Shown here one piece after another: positions 22,892-24,804 of a stretch of 64,000 bases of DNA. The notes beneath the pieces are model-generated. The model was not told where the DNA came from. It saw only the letters and a list, made by a program, of their open reading frames with translations, and made no database searches. The position numbers were made by a program, and so were the translations under genes. The stretch is from Escherichia coli. Lineage in GTDB: Bacteria > Pseudomonadota > Gammaproteobacteria > Enterobacterales > Enterobacteriaceae. The stretch lies in assembly GCF_011045215.1 (NCBI RefSeq), contig NZ_CP049201.1; one strand, given 5' to 3'. The first letter of the stretch is position 1, and the number at the start of each line of letters is the position of its first letter.

Positions 22892-24478
22892 ATGAGTCAT
22901 CGTGCACGACACCAATTACTGGCGTTGCCGGGCATTATCTTTTTAGTTCTCTTTCCCATCATTCTGTCGCTATGGATTGCCTTCCTTTGGGCAAAATCAG
23001 AAGTGAATAATCAGCTCCGAACTTTTGCTCAACTGGCACTGGATAAATCCGAGCTGGTCATTCGCCAGGCAGATTTAGTGAGCGATGCAGCAGAACGCTA
23101 TCAGGGGCAAGTTTGCTCTCCAGCCCATCAAAAGCGAATGTTAAATATTATTCGTGGCTATCTTTATATTAATGAATTGATCTATGCCCGTGATAATCAT
23201 TTTTTATGCTCATCGCTGATAGTGCCTGTAAACGGCTATACGATTGTATCGGCCGATTATAAGCGTGAACCTAATGTTTCTATCTATTATTACCGCGATA
23301 CGCCTTTTTTCTCTGGCTATAAAATGACCTATATGCAGCGGGGAAATTATGTGGCGGTTATCAACCCTCTCTTCTGGAGTGAAGTGATGTCTGATGACCC
23401 GACATTGCAATGGGGTGTGTATGATACGGTGACGAAAACCTTTTTCTCGTTAAGCAACGAGGCCTCGGCAGCAACGTTTTCTCCGCTGATTCATTTGAAG
23501 GATTTAACCGTACAAAGAAATGGCTATTTATATGCGACAGTTTATTCGACAAAACGCCCAATTGCAGCCATTGTTGCGACTTCATATCAACGTCTTATAG
23601 CCCATTTTTATAATCATCTTATTTTTGCGTTACCCGCCGGTATTTTGGGGAGTCTTGTTCTGCTATTACTCTGGCTACGTATTCGACAAAACTATTTGTC
23701 TCCCAAACGCAAATTGCAACGCGCCCTCGAAAAACATCAGCTTTGCCTTTATTACCAGCCAATAATTGATATCAAAACAGAAAAATGTATCGGCGCTGAA
23801 GCGTTGTTACGTTGGCCTGGTGAACAGGGGCAAGTAATGAATCCGGCAGAGTTTATTCCGCTGGCAGAAAAGGAGGGGATGATAGAACAGGTAACTGATT
23901 ATGTTATTGATAATGTCTTCCGCGATCTGGGCGCGTACCTGGCAACACATGCCGATCGCTATGTTTCTATTAATCTGTCGGCCTCCGATTTTCATACGTC
24001 ACGGTTGATAGCGCGAATCAATCAGAAAACAGAGCAATACGCGGTGCGTCCGCAGCAAATTAAATTTGAAGTGACTGAACATGCATTTCTTGATGTCGAA
24101 AAAATGACGCCGATTATTCTGGCTTTCCGCCAGGCTGGTTACGAAGTGGCAATTGATGATTTTGGTATTGGTTACTCTAACTTGCATAACCTTAAATCAT
24201 TGAATGTCGATATTTTGAAAATCGACAAATCGTTTGTTGAAACGCTGACCACCCACAAAACCAGTCATTTGATTGCGGAACACATCATCGAGCTGGCGCA
24301 CAGCCTGGGGTTAAAAACGATCGCTGAAGGCGTCGAAACTGAGGAGCAGGTTAACTGGCTGCGCAAACGCGGCGTGCGCTATTGCCAGGGATGGTTCTTT
24401 GCGAAGGCGATGCCGCCGCAGGTGTTTATGCAATGGATGGAGCAATTACCCGCGCGGGAGTTAACGCGCGGGCAATAA
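22892..24478 (+). CDS. pdeC: c-di-GMP phosphodiesterase (CSS-motif sensor plus EAL domain)
   Basis: Membrane-anchored periplasmic domain followed by an EAL domain ([14 protein letters not shown]); start at MSHRARH (528 aa) within the 531-aa ORF. Confidence 0.9.
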
Positions 24479-24480
24479 AA

Positions 24481-24804
24481 CTACAGGCGGTGGCGATAAT
24501 CGCTGGGAGTGCGATCAAACTGCCGACGGAAAACGCGGGAGAAGGTCTGCTGCGAGACATAACCCAGGTCCATTGCGATATCAAAAATCGGACGCTCGGT
24601 GGTGCGCAACTCAACGGCGGCCAGTAACAGGCGGCGTTGACGAATGTAATCGCCAAGCGTTTGATGCGTCACCGTGCGGAACATCCGCTGTAAGTACCAC
24701 TTTGAATAGCCTGATTTTTTTGCGACTACATCAATGTTAAGCGGCTGGTCAATATGCTCGTCAATCCATGCGATAAGATCCTGAATAATTTTCTGATGGG
24801 ACAT
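24481..24804 (-). CDS. soxS: AraC-family superoxide response activator
   Basis: 107-aa ORF recognised as SoxS. Confidence 0.95.
   Translation of the reverse strand: MSHQKIIQDLIAWIDEHIDQPLNIDVVAKKSGYSKWYLQRMFRTVTHQTLGDYIRQRRLLLAAVELRTTERPIFDIAMDLGYVSQQTFSRVFRRQFDRTPSDYRHRL

Follow-up and report, generated by a model that had tools for sequence, protein, structure and literature searches.

A compact pdeC–soxS junction with a conserved candidate 3'-end stem-loop for soxS

When two convergent genes stop almost at the same point, where can the transcript of each come to an end, and does the arrangement imply that one gene regulates the other? The pair formed by pdeC (yjcC) and soxS raises this question in the stretch of Escherichia coli DNA analysed here (64 kb; hereafter the window). 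The locus order is ssb-yjcB-pdeC-soxS-soxR-sraL-ghxP, and window coordinates equal K-12 coordinates minus 4252579. The junction is made up of the following features:

22892..24478, + strand: pdeC (yjcC) coding sequence, 528 codons plus a TAA stop at 24476-24478 (from the sequence, the ORF list, the K-12 annotation and Pfam).
PdeC residues 39-243 and 273-505: CSS-motif and EAL domains (Pfam), followed by a post-domain tail, residues 506-528.
24479..24480, 2 bp: the spacer 'AA' that separates the pdeC and soxS stop codons (from the sequence).
24481..24804, - strand: soxS coding sequence, 107 codons plus a TAG stop, which reads CTA on the + strand at 24481-24483 (from the sequence and the ORF list).
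24479..24889, + strand: the path of pdeC read-through, antisense to the whole of soxS and then toward soxR, which lies on the same strand.

The initial annotation had placed a gap of only 2 bp between the two stop codons, and this is exact. It follows from both the sequence and the ORF list, and the K-12 MG1655 annotation (pdeC 4275471..4277057, +; soxS 4277060..4277383, -) leaves the same 2 bp. The sole difference from K-12 at the junction is the soxS stop codon, which is TAG here and TAA in K-12, and of 5426 complete E. coli genomes, 5409 carry the 65-nt junction at an identity of at least 95%. SoxS matches the Pfam families HTH_18 and HTH_AraC, and the HTH_18 match extends over residues 28-106 of 107, so the protein has no spare C-terminal tail.

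How unusual is such a spacing? Convergent coding sequence pairs were tabulated in four 50-kb samples of K-12 (200 kb, n = 31). Four of these 31 pairs are separated by 2 bp or less or overlap (pdeC-soxS, 2; cueR-ybbJ, 0; cho-ves, -41; nudG-ynjH, -35), and the gap is 10 bp or less in seven. Given the 704 convergent pairs counted in E. coli (preprint 10.64898/2026.03.23.713779), the sampled frequency leads us to expect several dozen equally tight junctions in this species. We also measured stop-to-stop distances at the SoxS loci of 80 Enterobacteriaceae species representatives. A convergent pdeC lies beside soxS in 70 of the 80 species, and in 66 of the 80 the distance falls between a 16-nt overlap of the ORFs and a 15-bp gap. 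It is -16 in 15 species (Klebsiella, Raoultella, Trabulsiella, Yokenella, Pluralibacter and others), -4 in nine, and +2 in 19 (3 of 3 Escherichia, 15 Citrobacter and one Trabulsiella). The tight packing of the two genes is ancient, while the exact spacing varies freely; selection on the 2-bp spacing itself was considered and rejected, as the distance spans -16 to +15 across genera. The pdeC-soxS junction is thus a real, ordinary and already known arrangement. Its spacing does not go beyond chance; what exceeds chance is the hairpin that adjoins it.

That the two transcripts must overlap, as had been proposed from the spacing, is borne out: any 3' UTR longer than 2 nt enters the partner gene, and the pair is catalogued by ExcludonFinder (NAR 2025, PMC12288877), whose Table 1 includes pdeC-soxS as one of the 165 convergent excludons reported for MG1655, called where at least 50% of 58 RNA-seq samples show overlapping transcription units. 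Whenever both genes are transcribed in the same cell, the pdeC and soxS RNAs unavoidably share an overlap of some tens of nucleotides or more. This overlap is already published at the level of a catalogue, and our literature search found no study dedicated to the pair.

The question of where each transcript ends leads to two further features, both on the soxS-sense strand:

24445..24476, - strand: stem-loop at the soxS 3' end, with arms 24445-24456 and 24465-24476 and an 8-nt loop.
24300..24444, - strand: C-rich, G-poor soxS-sense RNA, a candidate Rho loading region, antisense to the end of the EAL-domain part of pdeC.

On the soxS-sense RNA the stem comprises 12 bp, including one G.U pair, with an 8-bp core made entirely of G/C pairs (24449-24456/24465-24472; arms CCCGCGCG/CGCGCGGG). 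The stem-loop starts 4 nt past the soxS stop codon and is encoded by pdeC codons 519-528, and by the Pfam boundaries it falls outside the EAL domain, in the post-EAL tail of PdeC. The predicted folding energies are -21.1 kcal/mol for the soxS-sense strand and -18.7 kcal/mol for the pdeC-sense strand. For a 101-nt segment read in the soxS sense the fold reaches -37.6 kcal/mol (z = -3.96), a value that none of 200 shuffles attains. The hairpin is also the sole perfect 8-bp all-G/C stem with a loop of 3-10 nt in the whole window, where shuffles would lead one to expect 0.1.

Is this hairpin a terminator of the familiar kind? Like the stem-loop of a canonical intrinsic terminator, it is rich in G and C. 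A U-tract (at least five U in eight) directly 3' of the stem is absent, the tail being UAAUUGCU after the core and UGCUCCAU after the full 12-bp stem. In addition, a consensus terminator scan called the hairpin neither in the E. coli window nor in three relatives, which makes intrinsic termination doubtful. Nor does the element belong to a known RNA family: the Rfam scan gave no curated family match at 24440-24500, and a candidate match to GABA3 (E = 0.43) was discarded as noise. The only real Rfam match nearby is sraL (ryjA), at 25347-25487.

The conservation of the hairpin follows its pairing. In an ungapped alignment of 16 sequences from Escherichia, Salmonella, Citrobacter and Intestinirhabdus, 90.3% of the stem cells are paired on the soxS-sense strand, as against 31-57% when the partners are slid by 1-3 columns, and two-sided changes, that is, covariation, are seen at four stem pairs; because the aligned sequences are phylogenetically related, these figures are descriptive and shuffle statistics exaggerate the significance. 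The PdeC tail peptide encoded over the stem varies among the aligned relatives while the pairing stays. The pairing is, moreover, biased toward one strand. In 14 of these 16 sequences the soxS-sense strand forms the more stable hairpin, and the fraction of paired cells drops from 90.3% on this strand to 75.6% on the pdeC-sense strand. G.U pairs account for the direction of the bias, as 29 of them occur on the soxS-sense strand, where they correspond to A-C mismatches on the pdeC-sense strand, and three occur the other way round.

The hairpin also outlasts pdeC. Salmonella enterica subsp. arizonae has lost pdeC but for a 26-codon 3' remnant, and this remnant still bears the hairpin, while Intestinirhabdus alba has no pdeC and retains the homologous hairpin, followed there by CCUUUUC. 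In Pseudocitrobacter a REP-like palindrome follows soxS, and in Kluyvera other GC hairpins do. Enterobacter, Klebsiella and related clades carry different, non-homologous hairpins, so the element is not universal, and the PdeC tail is unrelated in Enterobacter and Klebsiella. At the 67 loci with a tight junction, the first 100 nt past the soxS stop contain a best 44-nt local fold whose median energy is -20.6 kcal/mol, compared with a median of -12.4 kcal/mol and a 5th percentile of -18.6 kcal/mol for background folds inside pdeC (804 blocks), figures that are again descriptive for related loci. Not all of the conservation need be owed to the RNA: the invariant stem bases (CCCG/CGGG) fall on codons for Pro-Ala and Gly-Gln that are conserved in the PdeC tail of Escherichia and Citrobacter, and part of the stem conservation could reflect protein-level constraint on these residues.

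Just 3' of the stem-loop, the soxS-sense RNA has a rut-like composition, being C-rich, G-poor and untranslated. Over the roughly 140 nt of 24300-24444 the C/G ratio is 1.3-1.9 and the excess of C over G is 0.10-0.17 per 100 nt, reaching 0.13-0.17, the 95th to 99th percentile of the window, in six of eight subwindows. Where E. coli transcripts depend on Rho, their steady-state 3' ends have been found to show a stable stem-loop, no U-tract and a rut site close behind (PMC6061677). The combination of no U-tract with C-rich untranslated RNA downstream leads us to favour a Rho-type 3' end for soxS. We suggest that soxS transcription would pass its stop codon and enter the 3' end of pdeC, and that 4 nt past the stop the RNA would fold into the conserved GC-rich stem-loop. 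Rho, proposed here from base composition, or else a weak intrinsic event, may then halt transcription shortly downstream of the stem-loop. Trimming by 3'-5' exonucleases would presumably carry the RNA end back to the stem-loop, which would thereby define and protect the 3' end of the soxS mRNA some 40-45 nt past the stop codon. Published transcript maps yielded no 3' end for soxS or pdeC near the junction. The Term-seq supplements of Adams et al. 2021, from uninduced MG1655, contain no 3' end in 4276600-4277299 on either strand; the only 3' end within 4276600-4277499 in these uninduced cells is 4277382(-), at the soxS start codon, and the same supplements contain no Rho termination region at the junction coordinates. 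Nanopore direct-RNA supplements have no entry for soxS or pdeC.

The situation of pdeC is different in kind. It had been argued that the junction leaves no room for separate terminators. For soxS this does not hold, as a conserved 3' stem-loop is accommodated inside the last ten pdeC codons; for pdeC it stands, as no terminator can be recognised. On the + strand downstream of pdeC, to and into soxR, the consensus scan found no terminator-like element, and only weak folds are predicted. We attribute this lack to the DNA beyond pdeC, which encodes the essential SoxS HTH up to its last codon. With no + strand terminator, pdeC transcripts must run antisense into soxS; low-level pdeC transcripts would be expected to read into it and to end diffusely, through Rho, polymerase collision or decay. 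The first 80 nt of this path are G-rich (C/G 0.65-0.85). The hairpin itself is poorly placed to serve pdeC. Read on the + strand, the stem ends at 24472-24476, ahead of the pdeC stop at 24476-24478, and is followed by CAAUAAAAC. Trimming of a pdeC transcript back to the hairpin would cut off the stop codon of pdeC, and we speculate that this might be a reason for selecting a weaker stem on the + strand. A noncontiguous operon, pdeC-[soxS]-soxR, formed by read-through was also considered, there being no + strand terminator between the two outer genes, but was rejected; the three noncontiguous operons that ExcludonFinder reports in E. coli do not include it (PMC12288877).

Taken as a whole, the reading that we favour, and consider probable, is that of a Rho-type 3'-end stem-loop for soxS, set in a compact and ancient junction in which pdeC goes without a terminator.

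It would be tempting to see in the overlap a regulatory device instead, as the initial annotation did when it raised mutual antisense or transcriptional interference. In such a regulatory excludon, soxS and pdeC would antagonise each other through polymerase collision and/or cleavage of the RNA duplex by RNase III, and superoxide stress would be coupled to c-di-GMP. If true, the idea would tie c-di-GMP signalling to the SoxRS response. It has some appeal: the pair is among the 165 convergent excludons derived from RNA-seq coverage, excludon pairs show above-average synteny (PMC12288877) and the tight or overlapping layout is found in 66 of 80 Enterobacteriaceae species, and there is a thematic link in that yjcC affects the survival of oxidative stress by Klebsiella pneumoniae. 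We nevertheless regard it as unlikely. Coverage overlap is near-automatic at a gap of 2 bp and says nothing on regulation, and the ten supplementary files of a p19 dsRNA capture study contain no entry for soxS, pdeC or yjcC, in cells in which soxS was uninduced and with a method that captures few 3' overlaps. In K. pneumoniae, where the yjcC and soxS ORFs overlap by 16 nt, yjcC (pdeC) RNA becomes more abundant under paraquat and less abundant when soxRS is deleted. This rise does not fit mutual exclusion; however, the qRT-PCR behind it used random-hexamer cDNA and was not strand-specific, so that its signal could include soxS read-through. Furthermore, a conserved strong stem-loop after soxS suggests selection to confine soxS transcription and not to exploit its read-through.

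The expression of the two genes also matters here. Transcription of soxS is strongly inducible, by roughly 100-fold under superoxide stress, and pdeC is weakly expressed, which makes an effect of pdeC on soxS unlikely and means that any interference should run from soxS to pdeC. Expression of pdeC depends on sigma-S, as is generally known and as cited in the K. pneumoniae yjcC paper. If the overlap has a regulatory effect, it is probably a modest one in a single direction, from induced soxS to pdeC. A bolder version of this idea would make the hairpin dual-purpose: it would set the soxS 3' end, while stress-induced soxS transcription would invade the pdeC 3' end, shorten or destabilise the pdeC mRNA and reduce the phosphodiesterase, wiring oxidative stress to c-di-GMP and biofilm across the Enterobacteriaceae. 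We consider this highly unlikely; were it true, part of the reported 'SoxRS-dependent paraquat induction of yjcC' in Klebsiella would have come from soxS read-through, antisense to yjcC and registered by a qRT-PCR without strand specificity.

Two other explanations concern the hairpin itself. It might be a weak intrinsic terminator, possibly bidirectional and common to both genes, whose stem-loop positions head-on polymerase collisions. The stem is palindromic and forms on both strands at the energies given above, the homologous hairpin of Intestinirhabdus is followed by UUUU, and Ju et al. 2019/Wang et al. (10.1101/2022.10.23.513370) provide examples from convergent pairs that are non-intrinsic-like and Rho-independent and that need a stem-loop. 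However, stopping at the + strand stem, which precedes the pdeC stop codon, would leave a pdeC mRNA without a stop; G.U pairs systematically weaken the pdeC-sense stem; and neither strand has a U-tract after it. We therefore think it quite unlikely that the hairpin acts in this way, and the canonical form of the idea, a bidirectional intrinsic terminator with a hairpin and a U-tract past both stops, can be rejected, given a + strand stem that lies ahead of the pdeC stop, continues into CAAUAAAAC and is the weaker one in 14 of 16 sequences. The other explanation is that PdeC coding gives rise to the hairpin as a by-product, or that the hairpin serves the pdeC mRNA, for example as a 3' stabiliser, in either case with no relation to the 3' end of soxS. 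The match of the invariant outer stem bases to the conserved Pro-Ala and Gly-Gln codons in Escherichia and Citrobacter speaks for it, as does the folding of the stem on the + strand too. We give this explanation hardly any credence, since the tail is no part of the EAL domain and Enterobacter and Klebsiella have an unrelated one, the pairing persists as the peptide changes, 14 of 16 sequences have the stronger stem on the soxS-sense strand, and the hairpin is retained beside soxS where pdeC has been deleted.

What the junction contributes beyond the catalogued overlap is one modest addition: a candidate stem-loop for the soxS 3' end that shows covariation and strand bias and is carried within the dispensable C-terminal tail of PdeC. 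Where intergenic space is lacking, the DNA for a neighbour's dispensable C-terminal tail may carry the 3'-end signal of one gene, while the partner gene, here pdeC, which faces the SoxS HTH, goes without a signal. The practical value of this is limited. A deletion or tag placed at the C-terminus of PdeC, or at the soxS 3' end, will affect the other gene's transcript, and assays of pdeC or yjcC that are not strand-specific may be confounded by soxS read-through under redox stress.

Several known systems resemble this junction in part. One lies in the same locus, where soxR and sraL also overlap convergently at their 3' ends, the end of the sRNA covering the last 8 nt of soxR; that junction, however, possesses a canonical terminator, bidirectional and intrinsic, whose 13-bp stem has A/T runs on either side and was called terminator-like, whereas pdeC-soxS is without such an element. 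With convergent excludons pdeC-soxS shares tail-to-tail neighbours on opposite strands, overlapping transcription units and conserved synteny; it differs in that its overlap, reported from RNA-seq coverage, is forced by the 2-bp spacing. The terminators of Ju et al. 2019/Wang et al. (10.1101/2022.10.23.513370) likewise belong to convergent pairs and involve a boundary stem-loop that is not canonical-intrinsic-like, but the element described here is not intergenic, lying within pdeC upstream of its stop codon, and is strand-biased toward soxS. There is also a likeness in form to the class of Dar & Sorek 2018 (PMC6061677), with its stable stem-loop, its lack of a U-tract and its C-rich RNA just downstream; the soxS stem-loop, whose role at the 3' end is predicted here from sequence, departs from that class in sitting inside the coding sequence of a convergent gene.

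An abundant RNA 3' end lies within the coding start of soxS: Term-seq of uninduced cells places an end with a score of 43001 at K-12 4277382, window 24803 on the minus strand (Adams et al. 2021, supplementary file 1). An end at this position, the middle base of the start codon, implies that a short RNA consisting of the soxS 5' UTR alone is made, via premature termination or processing. Upstream, the 85-bp soxS-soxR intergenic region contains a perfect 18-bp palindrome, CCTCAAGTTAACTTGAGG (window 24861-24878), which is the SoxR operator in the spacer of the soxS promoter.

On the 3' side of soxS, some of the lineages sampled among the Enterobacteriaceae species representatives lack an intact pdeC. 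In Salmonella enterica subsp. arizonae CCUG 6322T (locus L005, 2825-2910), a pdeC 3' remnant of ~26 codons adjoins soxS and the rest of the gene appears to have been deleted, the remnant still carrying the conserved hairpin, the GC-rich stem-loop found just past the soxS stop; at this locus, no minus-strand ORF of at least 50 aa ends within 600 nt of soxS. Two Pseudocitrobacter loci (L034 and L043) are without pdeC, and soxS is followed there by a palindrome, GCGCCGGATGACGC...GCATCCGGCCTAC (about 2835-2870 in locus coordinates), that resembles, as we presume, a REP element. Spacing varies where both genes are kept: soxS and pdeC are 449-712 bp apart in Kosakonia and a related MAG (L049, L055 and L057), with extra DNA at about 2825-3540, whereas in their close relatives L054 and L059 the gap is 7 bp. 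Among the ~5400 matches to the pdeC-soxS region in E. coli, three are plasmid-typed records, and in a single genome, MS 69-1 (hit H12), the match covers only the pdeC part, the adjoining annotated AraC-family gene bearing a different name.

The pdeC-soxS locus holds a second 3' overlap, in which soxR is faced tail-to-tail by an sRNA gene whose 3' end covers the final 8 nt of the soxR coding sequence (soxR ends at 25354). The features are as follows.

Window 25347-25487, minus strand: sraL/ryjA sRNA gene (Rfam RF01408, 153 bits).
Window 25348-25378: 13-bp palindromic hairpin common to sraL and soxR, called terminator-like on the sraL (minus) strand.

This arrangement is already known in K-12, and sampling convergent junctions in four 50-kb stretches of K-12 MG1655 yielded two other overlaps, each of 2 nt, in which the annotated 3' end of an sRNA gene reaches into a convergent CDS at its stop end.

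K-12 507204-507287: chiX, sRNA gene, facing ybaP (507286).
K-12 4263139-4263249: pspH, sRNA gene, facing qorA (4263248).
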